DNA of 64,000 nucleotides from Thermodesulfobacteriota bacterium (GTDB lineage Bacteria > Desulfobacterota > QYQD01). Positions within the stretch are counted from its first letter, which is position 1. Every line of letters starts with the position of its first letter. The stretch covers positions 10,877 to 74,876 of the forward strand of contig JBFMAZ010000013.1 in assembly GCA_040755415.1 (NCBI GenBank), in the 5' to 3' direction. The notes under the pieces are model-generated. The model saw only the letters and a program-made list of their open reading frames with translations. It was not told the DNA's origin and did no database searches. Positions 2,729-60,994 of this stretch are shown here, piece by piece. The translations under genes were made by a program, and so were the position numbers.

Positions 2729-2890
2729 GTAACACTTTAGCTGTTTGAAAAGAGCTAGTCGTCCAGAAAACGGCGCCTCGAAAATCCCCCTTAATCCCCC
2801 TTTTTCAAAGGGGGAAATGTTTCTCCTCCCTTTGGAAAAGGGAGGTTGGGAGGGATTTTAAAATACTTTTTCAAACAGCTAAACTGATAC
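2729..2890. mobile_element. MITE copy 1 (162 bp). TIR GTAACACTTTAGCTGTTTGAAAAG / CTTTTTCAAACAGCTAAACTGATAC; flanked by 8-bp direct repeat CAAATCTC.
   Basis: Same element recurs at 34540-34701, 60802-60994 and partially at 54486-54594. Internal hairpins CCCCCTTTTTCAAAGGGGG and CTCCTCCCTTTGGAAAAGGGAGGTTGGGAGG. Direct repeats CAAATCTC at 2721-2728 and 2891-2898. Confidence 0.8.
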
Positions 2891-11923: not shown

Positions 11924-12077
11924 GAGGCTCTTGCAAAAGTCTTATGATCGGGTTGCCGTCATTCCGGCGAACTCCGGATCAGGTCCGGGGCAGGCGCCGG
12001 AATCCAGTGATTCCGACCAGATTAAGACACTACTGGACACCGGTTTTCACCGGTGTGACGACTTTTGCAAGAGGCTC
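11924..12077. repeat. TIR element family 3, copy 1: TIR GAGGCTCTTGCAAAAGTC...GACTTTTGCAAGAGGCTC, internal GNRA-tetraloop hairpin TTCCGGCGAA(C/A)xCCGGAA and CACCGGTtttcACCGGTG hairpin
   Basis: Near-identical ends and core at 25969-26099; partial related hairpin at 17552-17631. Gives spurious small ORFs ending ...VTPVKTGVQ on minus strand. Confidence 0.7.
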
Positions 12078-17409: not shown

Positions 17410-17444
17410 AAATTCGAAATACGAATATCGAAATTCGAAACAAG
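17410..17444. repeat. AT-rich cgaaat repeat (family 2) short copy
   Basis: aaattcgaaatacgaatatcgaaattcgaaacaag; same words as 45471-45630, 50473-50633, 55908-56025. Confidence 0.6.
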
Positions 17445-17551
17445 ATATTGATGGTAGAGGTACGAGATTTGCCCTGCTCAATAGTTTTTTGAACCTAGTG
17501 TAGTACGCTATAAATAGCGCAACATATATTCTGGTATTCTGGTAACAAAAA

Positions 17552-20635: not shown

Positions 20636-22635
20636 AGGCTAATGATATGGTGCTGCGCATGAAAAATTCGAAATTCGAAGCTCGAAATTCGAAAATTAAA
20701 GTAGTTGGCCTTGTACTATTTGTCTGCCTTATCATTTTAAGTTGTGCTGAGGCGCCGACCAGGCCTCAGCGAGGTTTCGCTCCGAAGGCATGTCTGGACT
20801 GCCATGGCAAGAAGTTCGATGATCTCAAAAAACCTTATGTCCATGGTCCGGCGCTCGAAAAAGACTGCGAAGTATGCCATGATCGCCATGGTAAGATACC
20901 CATCAGGACATTCAAAAAACCGGGTGCCGCATTGTGTTATACCTGCCATGCCGCGGAAAAACTAGGGATAAGTGAAAAAGCTGCGGTTCATACCCCTATA
21001 AAAGAAGGCAAATGTATACCCTGTCATGCCCCGCATGCCGGTGACAATAAACTCTTCTTAAAAAAGCAGGGTAATAGCCTTTGCTTTGATTGTCACCAGG
21101 AGACTCTATTTAAAGGCGCTAAAATCCATGCCCCGTTAGAAAAGGGGTGCTTGACCTGCCACAGACCTCATGCCTCACCCCAGGCCGATCATCTTGTCAA
21201 ACCAGAGACAGAGCTTTGCCTTGGTTGCCACAACTCAGGGAGCGCCTCTTTCCGGACAGCCCATCAGAATTACCCAGTGGAAAAGGCGCATTGTACGGGA
21301 TGCCATGACCCGCATGCCACGGCCCATCCTAAGTTACTAAGACCTTCTATACATAAGCCGCTGGCGGAAAAAAGGTGTAGTTCCTGCCACCGTCCATCTG
21401 CAGATAAAGAGCCGCTAAAGGCCGTGGCTCAGGATGGCGCCCTTTGCTACTCCTGCCACGAGCAGGTGGCCAGGCGATTTGAACAGGTCTGCCGGCATAA
21501 GCCCATACAAGAGGGCAAGTGCCTGGTCTGCCATAGTCCCCATGCCACGGATTTTGTCCCCCAGTTGGTTAAGGATGTCAACTCTCTTTGTTTTGCCTGT
21601 CATAAAGAGAAGGCAGGTTCTTTGAAGGCAGGTGTGCCGCATGCGCCACTCAAAAAGCAGGGTTGTACGGCCTGTCATGATGCACATGCCTCGGCTAATA
21701 CTAGATTGCTCAAGATGGAAAAAGAGAAGCTCTGTCTCGAGTGTCATAAGAAGACAGAGGAAGAACTAAGGGCAACTTATGTACATAAACCCCTTGCATC
21801 TGATCAGTGTACGACCTGCCACAACGCCCATGGATCCAATTATAAGGGAATGCTGGGCGTATCCCCGGAGGCCCTGTGCTACAGTTGTCATAAGGAGGCC
21901 AGAGATAAATTTTATAAGGCATACGTTCATACCCCGGTAAGTAAAAAGAATTGTACAGGATGTCATAAGCCGCATGGAGCAAATTATAAATCTCTTCTCA
22001 AGCATTCCAAGGTGGATATTTGTTTCTCCTGTCATGTAGAAATGAAGAACATAGGTGCAGAAGGCAAGGGTCATCCGCCATTTATGAGGAAGGAATGCCA
22101 GGGCTGTCACGACCCCCACGCCAGTAATTATCCGATGCAGCAAGCGCTTCCACCTTCTGAACTCTGTCTGAGGTGTCATAAGAACTTCGTGGCCAAAGGA
22201 AAAGACGCCCCGGCCGTACATCAGCCGGTAAAGGAAGGAAACTGTATCAGTTGCCATAGCCCGCACGGTACAAAACTGGCCAGTTTGCTCCTCAATCAAA
22301 CCGGTGAGTTGTGTCTGTCCTGTCATGGCCAGCTAAAGGAGGCGCTGCGTTCGGCCCGGGGGCATACGCCGGTCAAGCAAGGTAATTGCCGCGGCTGCCA
22401 TCTGCCCCATTACGGAGAAGAAAAAGGGCTCTTGGCCAACCGGGATCCATTCCTCTGTCTCCAGTGCCATGCTGCCGATAAACCTACCAATATCAAGGCG
22501 CATCAGGGATTGCTCCAAAACACCAGCTTATGTCTGGAGTGTCATGAGCCGCATATATCCGCCAAAGGGAGTTTGTTGAAGAAAAATGAGCACAGTCCTT
22601 TTGCCAAGAGAGATTGCAGGCTGTGTCATAAATAA
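20632..22635 (+). CDS. Multiheme c-type cytochrome, 26 CxxCH motifs, probable lipoprotein (lipobox ILSC)
   Basis: 26 CxxCH counted by eye, many as CxxCHxPH(A/G) paired-CxxCH/c7-like repeats. N-terminal 20 codons overlap a cgaaattcgaa repeat (20661-20696); alternative start ATG 20659. Confidence 0.85.
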   Translation: MKANDMVLRMKNSKFEARNSKIKVVGLVLFVCLIILSCAEAPTRPQRGFAPKACLDCHGKKFDDLKKPYVHGPALEKDCEVCHDRHGKIPIRTFKKPGAALCYTCHAAEKLGISEKAAVHTPIKEGKCIPCHAPHAGDNKLFLKKQGNSLCFDCHQETLFKGAKIHAPLEKGCLTCHRPHASPQADHLVKPETELCLGCHNSGSASFRTAHQNYPVEKAHCTGCHDPHATAHPKLLRPSIHKPLAEKRCSSCHRPSADKEPLKAVAQDGALCYSCHEQVARRFEQVCRHKPIQEGKCLVCHSPHATDFVPQLVKDVNSLCFACHKEKAGSLKAGVPHAPLKKQGCTACHDAHASANTRLLKMEKEKLCLECHKKTEEELRATYVHKPLASDQCTTCHNAHGSNYKGMLGVSPEALCYSCHKEARDKFYKAYVHTPVSKKNCTGCHKPHGANYKSLLKHSKVDICFSCHVEMKNIGAEGKGHPPFMRKECQGCHDPHASNYPMQQALPPSELCLRCHKNFVAKGKDAPAVHQPVKEGNCISCHSPHGTKLASLLLNQTGELCLSCHGQLKEALRSARGHTPVKQGNCRGCHLPHYGEEKGLLANRDPFLCLQCHAADKPTNIKAHQGLLQNTSLCLECHEPHISAKGSLLKKNEHSPFAKRDCRLCHK

Positions 22636-25002: not shown

Positions 25003-25142
25003 CCCGGTTTTTTCCCTCTCCCCTGGCGGGAGAGGGTTAGGGTGAGGGGGATAACCTAGCGATTTTCCTATCAGTTCACCCTCCCCCCCAACCCCCTCCC
25101 GTCGAGGGAGGGGGGAGTTTTTAGGGGTTTCCGGATGGACAC
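25003..25142. repeat. Complex ~140-bp GC-rich palindromic element (CCCTCTCCCCTGGCGGGAGAGGG and CCCTCCCGTCGAGGGAGGG hairpins nested in outer TCCGGAAACCCC...GGGGTTTCCGGA arms)
   Basis: Read directly; shares CCCTCCC/GGGAGGG and CCCCCTCACCC words with MITE core and in-frame palindromes. Confidence 0.6.
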
Positions 25143-25968: not shown

Positions 25969-26099
25969 GAGCCTCTTGCAAAAGTCTTGTAAATGGCGTT
26001 CTTGTCATTCCGGCGAAAGCCGGAATCCAGTAATTTCAAGCAGTTTAGATACCTCTGGACACCGGTTTTCACCGGTGTGACGATTTTTGCAAGAACCTC
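25969..26099. repeat. TIR element family 3, copy 2
   Basis: GAGCCTCTTGCAAAAGTC...GTCATTCCGGCGAAAGCCGGAATCCAG...CTGGACACCGGTTTTCACCGGTGTGACGATTTTTGCAAGAACCTC; matches 11924-12077. Confidence 0.7.
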
Positions 26100-29003: not shown

Positions 29004-31391
29004 TTAGTTCTCAATTGTACCTATGGACTGAAGTGCGGTCCGGGCCTCTTTAAAAAGGGGATTAACCTTAAGCGCCTTTTGCCATTTTCTCCTAGCCTCA
29101 GCTATGTGTCCCATTTTTTCATAAACCAGGCCCAGATGATAGTAGATTTCGTGATCTTTTTTCATCCGTTGCTGTGCTTCTTTAAGATGGTGGAGGGCTT
29201 GGGGATAATTATTTTTGAGATAATAAATCCGCCCTACTGTCTTCCAATAGAGGCTGTTTTGGTGATCGAGTTCGAGCGCTTTTTGACATAATGTATGGGC
29301 AATTTCCAGGTCGTTTTTTAGTTCAGCATAAAGCATACCCAACCAACTGAAGGAAAAGGCGTCAGCAGGGTTGCTCTTGACCGCCCTTTTAAATGCAGCC
29401 ATAGCATCTTTTTTTAGATTCAAGCCGAGATAAGCCTCACCCAGGTATCGGTATATATACCCCTTAGCATCCGGGCACTTCGCTGCTTTTTGAAAATAAC
29501 CAACGGCCTCCGTCCCTCTTTTCTGTTCTTGCAATAACTTTCCCATCTGAAAGAGGATCTCAAAATGATTCCCATTTAATGAAGCCGCCTGTTGCAGGGC
29601 CAAAAAGGCCTTGTCCGGGATGCCGGTTTTGAGATAGGCCAAACCCAGATTGTATTGGGCCATAAAATTATCTTTTTCCAGGGACAGGGTCTTCTCAAAA
29701 CAGGAAATGGCCCTTTTATACCATTTAAGCCGGGCATAGCAAACGCCCAGGCTATTTAAGAGATTGACGTCTTGCGGATCGAGGGACAGCCCCTTTTTAT
29801 ATTCCATTATGGCGCCATGGATATGGCCTGCATTGAAGAGCATATCCCCGCTTATATTGAGACTTACGGCATTAAAGGCGGTAATGGTGTCCGGGCCAAA
29901 GAAATCAGTATGTACAAGCGCCTTGTAGGCGTTAAAAGGGATCTCCTCTTTTTCATAATTGAGCGCCGGATAGCCGGCCAGGCCCATAGATACGGTCCTG
30001 CCGCACTCTTCCTTGATCTGAGATTTCAAATGCTTTCCTGCAAGAAGGGCCTCTTCCGGGCTAATATCCGGCAGGTAAATGAAAAAGGAGTCCTCAGTAC
30101 ACGGAAGGATCGACTGCCCCGGCGATAACCAGGAGTTTATCTTTTCCAGAAAAGGACTATAATCCCCTCCCCCATCCCGGGCGTCATATCTTGCCAATAT
30201 CAAGGAAAACTTCTTTGTTTTTCTCCACTTCCTTCCCAGTTTATCCGTAACCCGATGAATATTTACTGCCATTTTAAGGCTGATGGTCTCTTCGAGCTCC
30301 CGGGAAAAACAAAGAGGATAATCGAACCTGCCTTTGGCGACGGCCAGAGTCTCTTTACCTTTCTCGATAATAAGATCATATAACTTTTCTGGCGGCAGAT
30401 TCCGGCATTTTTCGTCTGAAAATCCCCCCAACCCCCCTTTACTAAAGGGGGGTGAGGGGGGATTATTTTCATTGTCCTTTGTGTCACTACACGACTTGTG
30501 TGTTTCGTTGCTGTTTATCGGATAGGTCAAAAGCCCTATAGCCGCCTTAATCCCATCCTTAAGGCGTCTTTTATTAAAAAGTTCAAATATAGCCAGACTT
30601 ATATTGCGGCCTCTCTCCTCATCACAAAAGGGCAGGACCAGGGCTAGGGTTGACTTATCTCTGCGGAACAGGCAGGAAAGAGCGATGCCTTTCAGCTCAT
30701 TTTTTATGGCCGGGATAATATCCGCCCAGAATTCACTGCGGCGGCCCGGTTTAAGGCTCGGGTTAGGGCGGCGCTTTAATGGATGATTAAAGAGTATCTC
30801 CATGAAAATTATTGAAAAGTTGGTATGCAAAGCAGGCAAATCCGGAAAGCCCTCTAGTTCGGATACAGGTTTGGTATCCCTGCCCTTCTGGCCCGTAGTT
30901 ATAAGCCGGATAAGGGTATCTTTAAAAAGTCCCGGGGCTAGTGCGCCGCTTTCCGCATCCGTAAAATAGGTCTTATATACCCGGACTTTTTCCAGGATTA
31001 ATTGGCTGAGCTTCGACCATTGGCTGGATAGTATATCTTTGTCAAATGTCCCGTCTGTATCTTTAAGTACAGCTATGCCGAGGGGCTTATTTTGCCATAT
31101 AAAAGGCAAGGATACGGAGTCGGTGTTTTTTTCAACGACAGGGACACTATTTGAAAAGACCTCTTTTATCTGAAAATCCCCCCATCCCCCCTTTAGCAAA
31201 GGGGGGTGAGGGGGGATTATTTTCATTTTGCTTTCGGTAATCAGGGGGCTAAGGATATCCGGCGCACAGTTCGCAGGCCAAAGGAGTACATCCTGGGCCT
31301 GAAAGAGAAGGCTTAAGTCATTCCTTATATCTTCCTGGAAAAGGAATATATCCTGTGGTTCTAATGAAGCTATGGAGGGCCTTTTTTCCAT
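29004..31391 (-). CDS. TPR-repeat protein (C-terminal ~300 aa of TPRs) with N-terminal uncharacterised region carrying two in-frame palindromic-element insertions
   Basis: Multiple 34-aa TPR-like repeats (…AISCFEKTLSLEKDNFMAQYNLGLAYLKTG…); insertions at 30422-30463 and 31177-31217 translated as NNPPSPPFSKGGLGGFSD and KIIPPHPPLLKGGWGDFQ. Confidence 0.75.
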   Translation of the reverse strand: MEKRPSIASLEPQDIFLFQEDIRNDLSLLFQAQDVLLWPANCAPDILSPLITESKMKIIPPHPPLLKGGWGDFQIKEVFSNSVPVVEKNTDSVSLPFIWQNKPLGIAVLKDTDGTFDKDILSSQWSKLSQLILEKVRVYKTYFTDAESGALAPGLFKDTLIRLITTGQKGRDTKPVSELEGFPDLPALHTNFSIIFMEILFNHPLKRRPNPSLKPGRRSEFWADIIPAIKNELKGIALSCLFRRDKSTLALVLPFCDEERGRNISLAIFELFNKRRLKDGIKAAIGLLTYPINSNETHKSCSDTKDNENNPPSPPFSKGGLGGFSDEKCRNLPPEKLYDLIIEKGKETLAVAKGRFDYPLCFSRELEETISLKMAVNIHRVTDKLGRKWRKTKKFSLILARYDARDGGGDYSPFLEKINSWLSPGQSILPCTEDSFFIYLPDISPEEALLAGKHLKSQIKEECGRTVSMGLAGYPALNYEKEEIPFNAYKALVHTDFFGPDTITAFNAVSLNISGDMLFNAGHIHGAIMEYKKGLSLDPQDVNLLNSLGVCYARLKWYKRAISCFEKTLSLEKDNFMAQYNLGLAYLKTGIPDKAFLALQQAASLNGNHFEILFQMGKLLQEQKRGTEAVGYFQKAAKCPDAKGYIYRYLGEAYLGLNLKKDAMAAFKRAVKSNPADAFSFSWLGMLYAELKNDLEIAHTLCQKALELDHQNSLYWKTVGRIYYLKNNYPQALHHLKEAQQRMKKDHEIYYHLGLVYEKMGHIAEARRKWQKALKVNPLFKEARTALQSIGTIEN
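30422..30463. repeat. 42-bp GC-rich palindrome inserted in-frame in TPR gene (copy 2)
   Basis: ATCCCCCCAACCCCCCTTTACTAAAGGGGGGTGAGGGGGGAT; near-perfect inverted repeat with central TTTACTAAA. Confidence 0.75.
31177..31217. repeat. 42-bp GC-rich palindrome inserted in-frame in TPR gene (copy 1)
   Basis: ATCCCCCCATCCCCCCTTTAGCAAAGGGGGGTGAGGGGGGAT. Confidence 0.75.
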
Positions 31392-33608: not shown

Positions 33609-34539
33609 CTATCCTTAACGTAAAAGATTATTTAGTAGCCCTATAAATGGGAATATTTCTTTGTTGAATTGGTACGTTACTCATTTTACATAGGTATGTC
33701 AAGATGTTATCACTTTTATGAGTGCCGGAAGGCATAATCTATCCCTCAAGACCTTAGTATTATTGAAGACATGCAAGAAGTGCCGGAGGGATAACCTATG
33801 GCCTGAATTTCGTGTTACGGTTTATATGCTGTAGAATTTGGTCGTAAATTCTGCTAGGATGTGACGGTGAGATCCGCCTCCGGCGGCATGGGACACGGCC
33901 TGGGTAACGCGCTGCAAGGCATATTAACCATAAGGAATTGTTTGACAATGGACAACGGCAGGATTCGCAAAAGAGATTCGGCAAGGCTGGTGTGGGATAG
34001 TAAGCCCCGCCGTGCGCCGAATCCCAAAGATATAGAGTTTCAGACCGCAGAGGTGGTCATCCTCAACCCTGTACATAGAGGACAGCTCCCTTTATCATTT
34101 AAAGACGGAATCTTGGGTGAGGCGGACATTGACAAGCAGAAGATGAACCGGCTCATCTGGGGTGACAACCTCCTGGCTATGCAGGCCCTGTTGGCCCAGG
34201 GATATGAAGGGAAGATAAACCTTATCTATATCGACCCGCCCTTTGACTCCAAGGCTGATTATTCCCACAAAATGACCATTCCCACTAATCCCTCTGGGAG
34301 AGGGCAGGGTGAGGGTCTTGAATTCACCAAAGAACCCTCGGTCATAGAGCGTCTCGCCTACAAAGACACCTGGGCCGGAGGCACGGACTCTTACCTTGAT
34401 ATGCTCTATCCCAGATTGCAGTTGATGAAAAGGCTGCTGGCAGAGGATGGGAGTATATATGTGCATACAGATTGGCATGTAGGGCATTATGTGAAGGTGC
34501 TGATGGATGAGGTGTTTGGGAAGGAAAATTTTATTAGCG

Positions 34540-34701
34540 GTAACACGTTAGCTGTTTGAAAAGAGCTAGTCGTCCAGAAAACGGCGCCTCGAAAATCCCC
34601 CTTAATCCCCCTTTTTCAAAGGGGGAAATGTTTCTCCTCCCTTTGGAAAAGGGAGGTTGGGAGGGATTTTAAAATACTTTTTCAAACAGCTAAACTGATA
34701 C
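34540..34701. mobile_element. MITE copy 2 (162 bp) inserted in mod; 8-bp flanking direct repeat TATTAGCG
   Basis: TIRs GTAACACGTTAGCTGTTTGAAAAG / CTTTTTCAAACAGCTAAACTGATAC. TATTAGCG at 34532-34539 and 34702-34709. Confidence 0.85.
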
Positions 34702-35665
34702 TATTAGCGAAATAGTATGGAAACGAACTGGCGCGAGGTCGATGTCAAAATATATTAATGCGATTCATGACGCAATTTACATTTATGCAAGAAATATCAA
34801 CAAAATGCTGTGGAACGGATATGTTACTGACTTTTCTGATGAGTATAAAAAGCGTTATTACAGGAATAAGGATGAACGTGGTAGATATTTTCAAGATACC
34901 TCTTTGATAGCTCCGGGCGAAGGATATTTATATGAGTGGAAAGGTATTGCAAAGCGCTGGAGATACAAAAAAGAAAAGATGGAGGAATTAGAAAAAGAAG
35001 GGAGACTTATCTATACAAATAAAGGGGGTGCCAGATATAAAAGATATTTAGATGAAATGCCCGGAGTTGCTCCTCAAGATATATGGTTAGACATCCCGCC
35101 TGTAAACTCACAGGCTTTAGAAGATACTAATTTTGACACCCAAAAACCCGAAGCCCTCCTCGAACGCATCATCAAAGCATCTTCCAATGAGGGCGATCTT
35201 GTCGCTGACTTTTTTAGCGGCTCAGGCACAGCACTTGCTGTTGCGGAAAAACTTAACCGTCGCTGGATTGGCTGCGAGCTTGGGAAGGTGGGCATACAGG
35301 TCACCCGCGCAAGGCTTGTAGAACAGCAGGCCAGGCCCTTCCTTATTGAGAACATAGGCAACTATCAAAGGGAGATGATCTATCTCACCGGCGGCAGGAT
35401 TTATGAGATGCAGCATCTCATCCTCAAGCTTTACGGCGCAACTCCCCGTGATAAATTAAGCGGACTTGGGATAAGAAAGGGTGAAGACGGCATAGAGGAG
35501 CTGGTTTATGTTGGTTACCCGGACCGGCCGGTTACCGCAAGCAAGGCGGAGGAACTGGCCATCCAGGCGCAAAAACTAGACGGCAGGGGCTATAAGAGAC
35601 TCATAATCCTGGGCTGGGATTATGAATACAACTATCATCAGGCGCTTGAATCAAGAAAGAAGGCA

Positions 35666-35707
35666 ATCCCCCCTCACCCCCCTTTACCAAAGGGGGTAAG
35701 GGGGGAT
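35666..35707. repeat. 42-bp GC-rich palindrome inserted in-frame in mod (encodes IPPHPPLPKGVRGD)
   Basis: ATCCCCCCTCACCCCCCTTTACCAAAGGGGGTAAGGGGGGAT. Confidence 0.75.
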
Positions 35708-36294
35708 TTTGTTGAGGTTATAAGCCGGGACATCCCGCCGGATATATACGATTATTTAAAAAAGGCAAGGACAGAGGAAGACATCGAAGCCCTTTCAGAC
35801 AAGGTTACCTTCTATGAAAGGCCATACCTGAAGATGGATGAACCAAGGATAAGCGATTTAAAAGACGGCAAGGTTGAGATTAGCCTGTCCATGAAACGCT
35901 ACGTCCTAATGGACATTCCCATAAGCCAGACCTCCAAGAAAGGGCAGGAAGACTATGCCGCCCTGATGAAGATAGCAAAGGATAATTTTGCGGTGCTTAT
36001 CGACTACTGGGCGGTTGACTGGGACTATGACGGTTTTACCTTCAAGAGCCAGTGGCGGGCATTCCGGGGCAACGGCAAAAAGGCCAGGACCGTTACCACC
36101 GAGGCAAAGGAGATTTTGGAAAAGAAAAGACGCATGATTGCTGTGAGGGTGGTGGATATATTCGGGAATGATGCCGGGGCTACGGTTGATTTACAATCCT
36201 GAAATAAGCAAGGGGATTATTGCATGATTTATGCGTAATCTGCAATAAGGGCCGATGTTATTGCAATATTCATCAATAAGCAAAAGAGGCTGGT

Positions 36295-45470: not shown

Positions 45471-45630
45471 CAAATCCGAAATTCGAATATCGAAATTCGA
45501 AGCAAATCCAAATTCCTAATGTCTCAATGTTCAAAACCGCAGCATGAACAATTCGTTTTGGCAATTCGGATTTTGATCATTTGATATTGTTTCGGGATTC
45601 GTGCTTCGGATTTCGAATTTGAAATCACGC
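45471..45630. repeat. AT-rich palindromic element family 2 (cgaaat/ttcgaa words), diverged copy
   Basis: ccaaatccgaaattcgaatatcgaaattcgaagc ... gggattcgtgcttcggatttcgaatttgaaatc arms around ~70-bp centre. Confidence 0.65.
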
Positions 45631-50472: not shown

Positions 50473-50633
50473 AAATTCTAAATCCGAAACACGAAACTCG
50501 AAACAAATTCAAATGACCAAATGAGGGCAATGACCAAAACAAAAGATCGAAGAAGTTGCTGATAGACGTTTCAAACATTCGATATTTGAATTTCGGATTT
50601 GTTTCGGATTTCGGATTTCGATATTCGGATTTA
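50473..50633. repeat. AT-rich palindromic element family 2, full copy, in rpsB-tsf spacer
   Basis: gaaattctaaatccgaaacacgaaactcgaaacaaattcaaatgaccaaatga...gtttcaaacattcgatatttgaatttcggatttgtttcggatttcggatttcgatattcggattt; ~85% identical to 55908-56025. Confidence 0.75.
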
Positions 50634-50713
50634 GGTGCAGTTTTGCCACTCTGTGCGCTTCGTGGTTAATCTTTTGATAATAATATCTCAGTTGTTAAGG
50701 GGGAAGAACATAA

Positions 50714-54296: not shown

Positions 54297-54360
54297 GCTG
54301 GTTGTGAATTATATATCGATGTCATTGGCTTAGAGCGGGTGGAGCGATTTTTCTAATAAT

Positions 54361-54700
54361 TTCGAAATCCGAAGCACGAAATACGAAACAAATTCAAATG
54401 CCTAAAATACAAAATTCAAAATATAATTTGGAGTAACATTTTAGGTTTTTGAAAAATATACCTAAGCAAGGCGCTATAAGGGCCAAAATCCCCCTCAATC
54501 CCCCTTTTCCAAAGGGGGAAGTGTTTCTCCTCCCTTTGGAAAAGGGAGGTTGGGAGGGATTTAAGAATACTTTTTCAAACAGCTAAACTGATACAATTTG
54601 GAAGATCGCGCCCTTGGTTCGCTGAAATTGAATAAGGTTTTGAAAATTTGATATTTGAATTTCGGATTTGTTTCGGATTTTGATATTCGATATTCGAATT
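54361..54700. repeat. Composite: family-2 AT-rich palindrome arms (54361-54425 and 54646-54700) with a 5'-truncated MITE (54486-54594) nested at its centre
   Basis: Left arm tcgaaatccgaagcacgaaatacgaaacaaattcaaatgcc...; right arm ...tttgaatttcggatttgtttcggattttgatattcgatattcgaa; centre carries aaaatccccctcaatcccccttttccaaaggggg...ctttttcaaacagctaaactgatac. Confidence 0.7.
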
Positions 54701-54739
54701 TTTTAAAATATATTAGCTTAGAAGGGGCGGGGCGGCCTT

Positions 54740-55909: not shown

Positions 55910-56025
55910 AAAATTCGAAATCCGAAGCACGAAACTCGAAACAAACTCAAATGACCAAATGAAAGCAATGACTAAAACGAAAAATCGAAGGCGTTGCTGA
56001 TGGACGTTTCGAACATTCGATATTC
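55908..56025. repeat. AT-rich palindromic element family 2, copy in dxr-rseP spacer
   Basis: gaaaaattcgaaatccgaagcacgaaactcgaaacaaactcaaatgaccaaatgaaagcaatgactaaaacgaaaaatcgaaggcgttgctgatggacgtttcgaacattcgatattcggattt. Confidence 0.75.
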
Positions 56026-56102
56026 GGATTTGGTCGCGGCTATGCCGCGCTGTGTACTCTGTGGTTAGGCTTTGAAATACCGTGTGTAGGGAAAGAGGAT
56101 AG

Positions 56103-60801: not shown

Positions 60802-60994
60802 GTAACACTTTAGCTGTTTGAAAAGAGCTAGTCGTCCAGAAAACGGCGCCTCGAAAATCCCCCTTAATCCCCCTTTTTCAAAGGGGGAATGTAGGGGGAT
60901 CCCCTTTTTCAAAGGGGGAAATGTTTCTCCTCCCTTTGGAAAAGGGAGGTTGGGAGGGATTTTAAAATACTTTTTCAAACAGCTAAACTGATAC
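60802..60994. mobile_element. MITE copy 4 (193 bp; has 31-bp internal duplication of a hairpin module); 8-bp direct repeat GTAATTTG
   Basis: TIRs as in other copies; GTAATTTG at 60794-60801 and 60995-61002; extra GGGGGATCCCCTTTTTCAAAGGGGGAA module. Confidence 0.8.

Follow-up and report, generated by a model that had tools for sequence, protein, structure and literature searches.

How does a GC-rich DNA palindrome come to lie inside protein-coding genes without breaking them, and what kind of element is it? The question is raised by a 64,000-nt stretch of contig JBFMAZ010000013.1 (positions 10,877 to 74,876; assembly GCA_040755415.1) from a Thermodesulfobacteriota bacterium, hereafter called the window. 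In-frame palindromic insertions are a textbook case of selfish DNA remodelling proteins, and they are mostly tied to Rickettsia. In the window, three 42-nt imperfect palindromes are found at 30422-30463, 31176-31217 and 35666-35707, each stop-free within an open reading frame (ORF). Here, we put at about 80% the probability that these are copies of a GC-rich palindromic repeat, similar to repetitive extragenic palindromes (REPs) and Rickettsia palindromic elements (RPEs), which were inserted in existing coding sequence and retained there. A preliminary description of the window had correctly reported the three copies, with the start of the second misplaced by one nucleotide (31177 instead of 31176). 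The copies and their host genes are as follows.

29004-31391, minus strand: host gene 1, a 795-aa protein with C-terminal tetratricopeptide (TPR) repeats and an N-terminal region without Pfam matches (ORF and Pfam)
33861-36202, plus strand: host gene 2, a type III-like mod gene (N6_N4_Mtase), split into ORFs 33861-34559 and 34742-36202
30422-30463, minus strand: core 42-nt palindrome, copy 1 (TPR site 2), read as PPSPPFSKGGLGG
31176-31217, minus strand: core 42-nt palindrome, copy 2 (TPR site 1), read as IPPHPPLLKGGWGD
35666-35710, plus strand: copy 3 in mod, a 45-nt segment (42-nt palindrome plus TTT) which replaces the 18 nt TTGAAGGATAAACTCAAG, encoding LKDKLK

The palindrome has the layout ATC6-N3-C6TTT-N3-AAAG6-N2-G6AT, that is, ATCCCCCC-N3-CCCCCCTTT-N3-AAAGGGGG(G)-N2-GGGGGGAT. 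A relaxed core pattern gave 11 matches in the window, compared with 0.02 expected from dinucleotide shuffles; the remaining eight matches are the paired hairpins of four 162-nt copies of a MITE (miniature inverted-repeat transposable element), which are described below. When folded as single-stranded DNA, the three copies reached -18 to -23 kcal/mol (z-scores of -3.3 to -5.8), and no shuffled sequence was equally stable. They also scored as terminator-like hairpins with T-rich tails on both strands, and a search of the whole window against Rfam at gathering thresholds gave no match. The two copies in the TPR gene have 71 nt in common at 90% identity, including the arms TGAAAATAAT...ATTTTCA; thus, the unit is longer than 42 nt.

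Translation of the ORFs gave the peptides that had been quoted in the preliminary description, NNPPSPPFSKGGLGGFSD and KIIPPHPPLLKGGWGDFQ in the 795-aa TPR protein and AIPPHPPLPKGVRGDF in the mod product. Of the three sense frames of every copy, 0 and 2 are open and 1 contains stops; read in antisense, each copy has one open frame and two with stops. The genes use the open frames. The avoidance of the stop-containing frame, which had been remarked on before, was thus observed in all three copies, but it is no sign of targeting, as survivorship alone yields the same pattern.

To be called insertions, the palindromic segments should be missing from orthologues with sharp boundaries, and this was found at all three sites. 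The TPR protein was compared with 13 orthologues (53 to 87% identity) by protein alignment, with DNA-level checks at both sites. The orthologues align well except for a few length differences, two of which fall at the palindrome positions and have sharp edges. At the DNA level, the whole insertions are longer than the palindromes.

31167-31223, minus strand: whole insertion at TPR site 1, 57 nt (19 codons), KIIPPHPPLLKGGWGDFQI, between ATG and AAAGAG of the ancestral sequence
30411-30503, minus strand: whole insertion at TPR site 2, 93 nt (31 codons), THKSCSDTKDNENNPPSPPFSKGGLGGFSDE, bounded by the direct repeat ACGAA(A)

TPR site 1 follows Lys-Met at residue 56. It is filled in P0001-P0004, empty in P0008, P0010 and P0012-P0014, and occupied by a different or degraded version in P0005, P0006, P0007, P0009 and P0011. 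The corresponding DNA is empty in L121 and L126 (P0010 and P0012), compound in L125 and half-deleted in L123/L124. TPR site 2 (residues about 296 to 326) is filled in P0001-P0003, enlarged in P0005 and of another form in the 60%-identical P0012, and is otherwise empty. The empty site reads AGCAACGAAAAATGCC in L120, L123 and L121, and on the plus strand the direct repeat around the filled site appears as TTCGT at 30411-30415 and 30504-30508. In P0012, the right-hand junction of site 2 is the same as in the window and the left-hand junction is different. A separate length difference of the TPR protein lies at alignment columns 308-315, where the 8 residues RFIPPHLV or RFISPHLV are present in P0002, P0004, P0005, P0008 and P0010 and absent from the window, and where P0012-P0014 carry a longer, unlike sequence.

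In mod, the element was found in only 3 of 120 homologues (the window, P0040 and P0042). The other 117 have an ALKDKLK-type or other sequence at this place, most of them reading ...RKKALKDKLKVEV..., and comparison with the syntenic relative L250 shows that 18 nt were exchanged for 45 nt. The replaced 18 nt are weakly palindromic themselves. All three insertions change the length by a multiple of three, and the same inserts recur across independent NCBI, JGI, ENA and Logan assemblies, so an assembly artefact is unlikely. The three segments are therefore insertions relative to orthologues at both the protein and DNA levels, and orthologues without the DNA palindrome also lack the peptide, in agreement with the earlier proposal of an RPE-like, in-frame insertion of a selfish-type palindrome into coding genes.

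The host status of mod needs one correction. The palindrome does lie in a mod ORF, 34742-36202, which encodes the C-terminal part of an N6_N4 DNA methylase of the type III mod kind, but mod is not a whole gene in this genome: a 162-nt MITE at 34540-34701 parts the C-terminal portion from the N-terminal 232 codons (33861-34559). The Pfam profile is matched at positions 1-74 by the first ORF and at positions 93-213 by the second. The relatives L128 and L250 have an uninterrupted mod at the same chromosomal position. The restriction-modification system is thus probably inactive or altered here.

The inserted peptides are placed where a protein might tolerate them. In an AlphaFold 2 (AF2) model of the TPR protein (mean predicted local distance difference test score [pLDDT] of 62), both inserts lie in coil, in segments 41-78 (between E34-39 and H75-80) and 293-330 (between E281-290 and H326-330). 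In the model of the intact Mod protein P0040 (pLDDT of 68), the insert lies in coil 479-491, between H468-478 and E492-497. All three window inserts are thus predicted to fall in loops, although the confidence is modest. The same holds for hosts outside the window. A metagenomic MurD carries 20 additional residues at the junction of domains 1 and 2, just before GxxGTNGKTT, which are missing from every solved MurD, and in several other hosts the element lies between Pfam domains. For an Mfd host, the alignment with the PDB ends short of the insert.

The element belongs to a large repeat family. A scan of the genome collection with CCCCCCNNNCCCCCCTTTNNNAAAGGGGG returned at least 119 stretches, compared with about 0.02 matches expected by chance for its 23 fixed bases (our estimate). 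Among the matches listed, the hosts were Desulfobacterota, Nitrospirota, Nitrospinota, Beta- and Gammaproteobacteria (isolates of Lysobacter, Iodobacter and Thiorhodococcus among them), Methylomirabilota, Planctomycetota, Aminicenantes, Binatia, Omnitrophota and others. A metagenome scan for the full two-arm form gave at least 120 loci, and 84 stretches were found on viral contigs, where one Mu-like phage region has five copies. The family thus extends across phyla and phages, and its copies are found between genes, at gene ends and inside genes. Full-text literature searches for the DNA strings and the encoded peptides found no relevant paper.

The conserved unit is WAAT-C6-N2-3-C6TTT-N3-AAAG6-N2-3-G6-ATTW, about 48 nt in length, with extended arms that are specific to subfamilies. 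Of all arms, 99%, 98% and 97% have the A, A and T, respectively, that adjoin C6. The arm subfamilies include CCAGAAAT, ATGAAAAT, CTGAAAAT and TTTCAAAT; the window copies have the last but one of these and AAAATAAT. The unit occurs as a half form (AAATC6-N3-[C6TTT-N3-AAAG6]), as an inverted doublet of two half units spaced 10 to 25 nt apart, and as a single hairpin of 41 to 43 nt, in which two units share one stem-loop. Half units were found downstream of genes; one, in L072, comes after gyrA. A pair of inverted copies in L072, with 6 kb between them, was considered as a composite element and rejected: the interior consists of housekeeping genes (gyrA and trpE), and the copies are merely intergenic. 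In L202 (1394-1585), one metagenomic ORF holds two element copies 153 nt apart with near-identical flanks (..NNPPLPPFSKGGEGGFSGGN..), which suggests a tandem duplication of the insert-bearing segment within the gene.

In one of the arm subfamilies, CATGAAAAT...ATTTTCATG, a G-run precedes an ATG by about 7 nt on both strands, in an arrangement like that of a Shine-Dalgarno sequence and start codon (metagenome loci such as L132, L190, L242, L245 and L223). Many of its copies lie directly upstream of long ORFs or open short MKIPP... ORFs, and they may give rise to starts or to spurious small proteins.

How often the family lies in genes was assessed by counting as genic any copy spanned by a stop-free frame of at least 120 codons from start (or contig edge) to stop, with at least 10 codons on each side. 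By this criterion, 54 of 127 full copies (about 43%) were genic among the metagenome matches listed, compared with about 74% of positions drawn at random from these contigs. Where the contig was below 45% GC, 30 of 44 copies were genic, which equals the null of 0.68; in contigs of 45 to 55% GC, the figure was 16 of 57 against a null of 0.71. At the genome loci, 38% of half forms lay in long ORFs; for full forms, the share in ORFs was 43 to 72% over the sets counted, the criterion being weak at high GC. Copies of 42 nt, a multiple of three, were not enriched in genes over those of 43 nt (about 42% versus 41%). Pfam analysis of 10 host ORFs identified 7 recognisable genes bearing the element: Mfd/TRCF, MurD, a GH57 branching enzyme, an amidohydrolase, a GT2-TPR protein, an SNF2 helicase and another N6_N4 methylase. 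The copies are thus not overwhelmingly intergenic, since 54 of the 127 listed lie in long ORFs and several fall within Pfam-annotated genes.

Orientation and frame bear on what is being spread. In all three window copies, the TCA-spacer arm is 5' on the coding strand, as had been noted, but this is no general rule: among the metagenome matches listed, the asymmetric form occurred 22 times in sense and 15 times in antisense, in five frame/orientation combinations. The common orientation in the window is a small-sample effect. In all combinations, the peptides were (N/I)PPxPP[FL]xKGGxGG-like or IPPxPLxQRGxRGD. That the same DNA is read in five frame/orientation combinations speaks for a DNA-level element rather than a protein motif. 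The opposite view is that PPxPPLxKGGxGG itself is selected as a linker or binding site and that the DNA palindromy is secondary; similar peptides do recur in many hosts, and Pro/Gly-rich linkers can be useful. However, the same DNA is also intergenic and is used in both orientations and three frames (giving NPPxPPF.., IPPxPPL.., KSPxPPF.. and IPPxPLxQRGxRGD), the DNA symmetry is what is conserved, the segment is missing from orthologues, and none was seen to keep the peptide with non-palindromic codons. We find this explanation scarcely credible.

For the repeat-insertion reading, the following course of events is envisaged. By analogy with REPs and their associated transposases (RAYTs), copies would spread as non-autonomous DNA hairpin elements mobilised in trans, with local copy-and-replace (gene conversion at hotspots) as a possible extra contributor, and selection would merely filter where copies survive. 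Four properties account for retention: (i) an inserted length divisible by three, (ii) C- and G-runs that are read as Pro-Pro...Gly-Gly and have no stops in most frames of either strand, (iii) an (N/I)PPxPP[LF]xKGGxGG[FIL] peptide that makes a flexible loop and (iv) the position of the surviving copies in permissive linkers between secondary-structure elements or domains. Many insertions would thus be harmless because the C-run/G-run make-up encodes loop-suited Pro-Pro...Gly-Gly without stops in most frames.

Several results weigh against this reading. The junction repeats are inconsistent (about 3 to 4 nt, 5 to 6 nt and none), so classical cut-and-paste transposition in the manner of a MITE is not supported; for the same reason the element itself was rejected as a MITE, since it has no constant target-site duplication, whereas the 162-nt MITE of the window has clean 8-bp duplications. 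No transposase was found among 40 ORFs of the window run through Pfam. Unlike hairpin elements occupy identical sites across lineages (the mod linker and TPR sites 1 and 2), and selection on permissive loops only partly explains these recurrent sites. The inserts are conserved to an excess that is unlike neutral filler, which was unexpected. Finally, low pLDDT at the inserts, in models of modest confidence (62 and 68), comes partly from alignment gaps, and the ORF-length criterion of the genic census is unreliable in high-GC contigs. The consequences of site recurrence, decay and excess conservation are considered in turn.

Site recurrence is most evident in mod. The mod linker is a multi-family insertion hotspot, holding this element in three sequences, GGGGCGCATGGCAATGCGCCC in the Brocadiaceae-type Mod (L251) and longer variants in others. 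A second mod site has an in-frame 27-nt hairpin, TCCCTGCAGGCTTTAAGCAGGGA. These hairpins of other mod orthologues, seen around MKSVGAHGNAPK in L251 and at 'KHVPAGFKQG' in L129/L251, are small, GC-rich, in frame and unrelated to the element. Such recurrence could reflect permissive loops, the targeting of existing hairpins or replacement by conversion. It also supports the view that recombination (gene conversion or template switching) onto hairpin-bearing sites mainly creates and renews the copies and that a dedicated enzyme is minor. Differing hairpin families or versions at the same sites would then be expected, as in the mod linker (this element, GGGGCGCATGGCAATGCGCCC in L251 and others), at TPR site 1 (the window against the compound version of P0006) and at TPR site 2 (P0012 against P0001); the exchange of 18 weakly palindromic nt in mod, the likeness of the two TPR copies beyond the conserved unit and the variable, microhomology-like length of the junction repeats all point the same way. 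Nevertheless, spread to hundreds of unrelated loci, phyla and phages needs access to naive sites, and selection for permissive loops likewise yields recurrent sites. We regard recombination as the main source as somewhat unlikely.

The copies also decay. The mod copy of L128 has lost 9 nt (TCACCCCCC) by slippage between two C6 runs, and P0005, P0007, P0009 and P0011 share a deletion between a TTGAAAAAA repeat of the element and a second one in the host, by which the element's right half and 13 host codons are lost. Compound two-hairpin versions were found in P0005 (TPR site 2) and P0006 (TPR site 1). Copies are thus lost by slippage or by deletion between internal repeats. Type III mod genes are classic phase-variable genes, and the four C6/G6 tracts might therefore serve as frameshift-prone contingency loci, with a phasevarion-like switch in mod; in addition to the known behaviour of such genes, C7/G7 variants and the 9-nt C-run slippage deletion among the copies would fit. 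However, tracts of 6 nt are short for efficient phase variation, and the hosts are mostly housekeeping genes, such as murD and mfd, in which switching off would be harmful. A role in phase variation is thus very improbable.

As for conservation, 149 of 150 insert positions were identical between the window and L127, compared with 88.3% over the rest of the TPR gene (Fisher p = 3e-7). Similar trends were obtained with three further relatives; across L127, L128, L250 and L120, the inserts (30411-30503 and 31167-31223) were 98 to 100% identical and the gene 88 to 90%, the four comparisons being phylogenetically non-independent. Constraint on the hairpin could produce the excess, as could recent homogenisation or transfer. 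The first possibility leads to the proposal that the hairpins are functional nucleic-acid elements under selection (attenuators or terminators, mRNA stabilisers, ribosome pause sites or protein-binding sites) and that the peptide is a by-product. Besides inserts better conserved than the surrounding coding DNA (99% versus 88%), this proposal would account for the terminator-like hairpins with T-rich tails on both strands, for the REP-like half and doublet forms just downstream of genes and for the arm subfamily that sets a G-run and ATG in a Shine-Dalgarno/start arrangement. On the other hand, orthologues function without the inserts, copies are decaying in other lineages, the host genes are mutually unrelated, and recent spread or gene conversion could equally give the excess in comparisons that are not independent of each other. 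We consider selected hairpin function unlikely.

When placed among known systems, the repeat-insertion reading finds partial counterparts. RPE-1 to RPE-10 are about 100 to 150 bp in length and are confined to Rickettsia and close relatives (Ogata et al. 2000/2002 via PMC10969869). Like them, the present family consists of in-frame palindromic repeats in unrelated, often housekeeping genes, with fold-compatible translated segments and a large genic fraction; it is a many-copy palindrome, in frame and absent from orthologues, which lies in loops (AF2 coils of modest pLDDT, and inter-domain positions). It differs in its unit of 42 to 57 nt of C6/G6 runs and inserts of 45 to 93 nt, in its presence in many phyla and phages with REP-like half and inverted-doublet forms, and in having no shared sequence features with RPEs, which were compared by description rather than by alignment. 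In-frame palindrome insertion is less exclusive to Rickettsia than the preliminary description had assumed. Intragenic REPs encoding 20 to 30 residues have been reported in Opitutus, Thauera, Xanthomonas and Rickettsia, with different REPs near the same recB site in two Xanthomonas species (Di Nocera et al. 2013; PMC3733652), and a 2024 review describes in-frame MITE/REP fusions as "not unusual" and places RPEs at the extreme (PMC10969869).

REPs and REPINs share with the element an imperfect palindrome of 20 to 40 nt, a conserved tail and the occurrence of singlets and inverted doublets (PMC3733652; Bertels & Rainey 2011, PMC3116915). REPs also lie mostly downstream of genes, with some in frame inside genes, and their recurrence at the same site in related species has been reported. 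In contrast, the element ends in WAAT/ATTW, where REPs have GTAG or CGTC tags; with AAT/ATT ends, it is not a GTAG/CGTC REP. A REP family usually keeps to one species or genus; this family crosses phyla, and its full form is far more often genic. We know of no link between the element and a RAYT.

The enterobacterial repetitive intergenic consensus (ERIC), Correia/NEMIS and Coxiella QMITE repeats are likewise small, non-autonomous and sometimes intragenic and translated (PMC10969869, PMC5896051). Bacterial MITEs, unlike the element, have terminal inverted repeats derived from insertion sequences and a target-site duplication of fixed length. The GC clusters and double-hairpin elements of mitochondria are tiny, nesting hairpin repeats that occasionally lie in coding regions. 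The small dispersed repeats of cyanobacteria, said to be the subject of work by Elhai et al. in 2008, are reportedly tiny hairpin repeats too, nested in each other and in MITEs and occasionally coding. Both differ from the present element in sequence and hosts.

The phenomenon itself is thus already known, and what is unusual here is the distribution across phyla and phages, the very high genic fraction at low GC and the excess conservation. A further-reaching claim is that this is an undescribed pan-bacterial, phage-borne family of coding-compatible hairpins, with a sequence in effect pre-adapted to translation because it yields Pro/Gly loops in most frames of both strands. The family would be actively maintained, by concerted evolution at insertion hotspots or by selection on the hairpin, and moved neither by a RAYT acting on GTAG REPs nor by a classical MITE transposase. 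We hold this only tentatively and think it doubtful; if true, essential bacterial proteins, MurD and Mfd among them, would gain new loops from a general source that had so far escaped notice. A family much shorter than RPEs and GC-rich does what they do, but in environmental, free-living bacteria from many phyla and in their phages, and it does so inside essential enzymes too. It offers natural loop-insertion experiments in proteins and a marker of strain-level genome dynamics in metagenome-assembled genomes, and it probably gives rise to spurious "hypothetical" small ORFs and to difficulties in annotation and assembly. The defined sequences and pairs of filled and empty sites make hairpin mobilisation or maintenance testable. 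This interest is bounded by the prior knowledge of the phenomenon and by a mobilisation mechanism drawn from analogy.

The remainder of the window contains housekeeping genes, multihaem cytochromes and a type III restriction-modification island (mod, a Fic gene and res). It also carries several other repeats, of which the MITE that splits mod is represented by four copies.

34540-34701, plus strand: 162-nt MITE interrupting mod, with 8-bp target-site duplication TATTAGCG and core C5 hairpin module AAAATCCCCCTTAATCCCCCTTTTTCAAAGGGGGA
2729-2890, plus strand: MITE copy, 99% identical to the copy in mod, target-site duplication CAAATCTC
54433-54594, plus strand: MITE copy, target-site duplication AATTTGGA
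60802-60994, plus strand: MITE copy with an extra 31-nt hairpin module nested in the core, target-site duplication GTAATTTG
25003-25142: a different MITE, intergenic and about 140 nt long, with terminal inverted repeats CATCCGGAAACCCC...GGGGTTTCCGGATG and flanking direct repeat TAGTTAG

The four copies have the terminal inverted repeats GTAACACTTTAGCTGTTTGAAAAG / CTTTTTCAAACAGCTAAACTGATAC and clean 8-bp target-site duplications. As the copy in mod is 99% identical to that at 2729-2890, its insertion is recent. The core of this MITE is a two-hairpin module (C5 version) related to the 42-nt element, which bears out the shorter relative suggested by the preliminary description. The larger relative proposed at 25003-25142 proved instead to be a separate MITE, with its own target-site duplication and other internal hairpins and without the C6TTT...AAAG6 core; L250 and L123 lack it, and in L127 and L128 its place is taken by an unrelated insertion.

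AT-rich intergenic repeats of AAATTCGAAAT-like units were also observed at 17410-17458, 20664-20712, 45472-45520, 50473-50674, 54358-54406, 54637-54701 and 55911-56073. They form several families (D2, D5, D8 and D10), some more than 100 nt in length, with 86 to 88% identity. Another repeated intergenic element of about 130 nt, with hairpins CACCGGTTTTCACCGGTG and TCCGGCGAA..CCGGA, is present at 11947-12077 and 25993-26099, with 78 to 88% identity.

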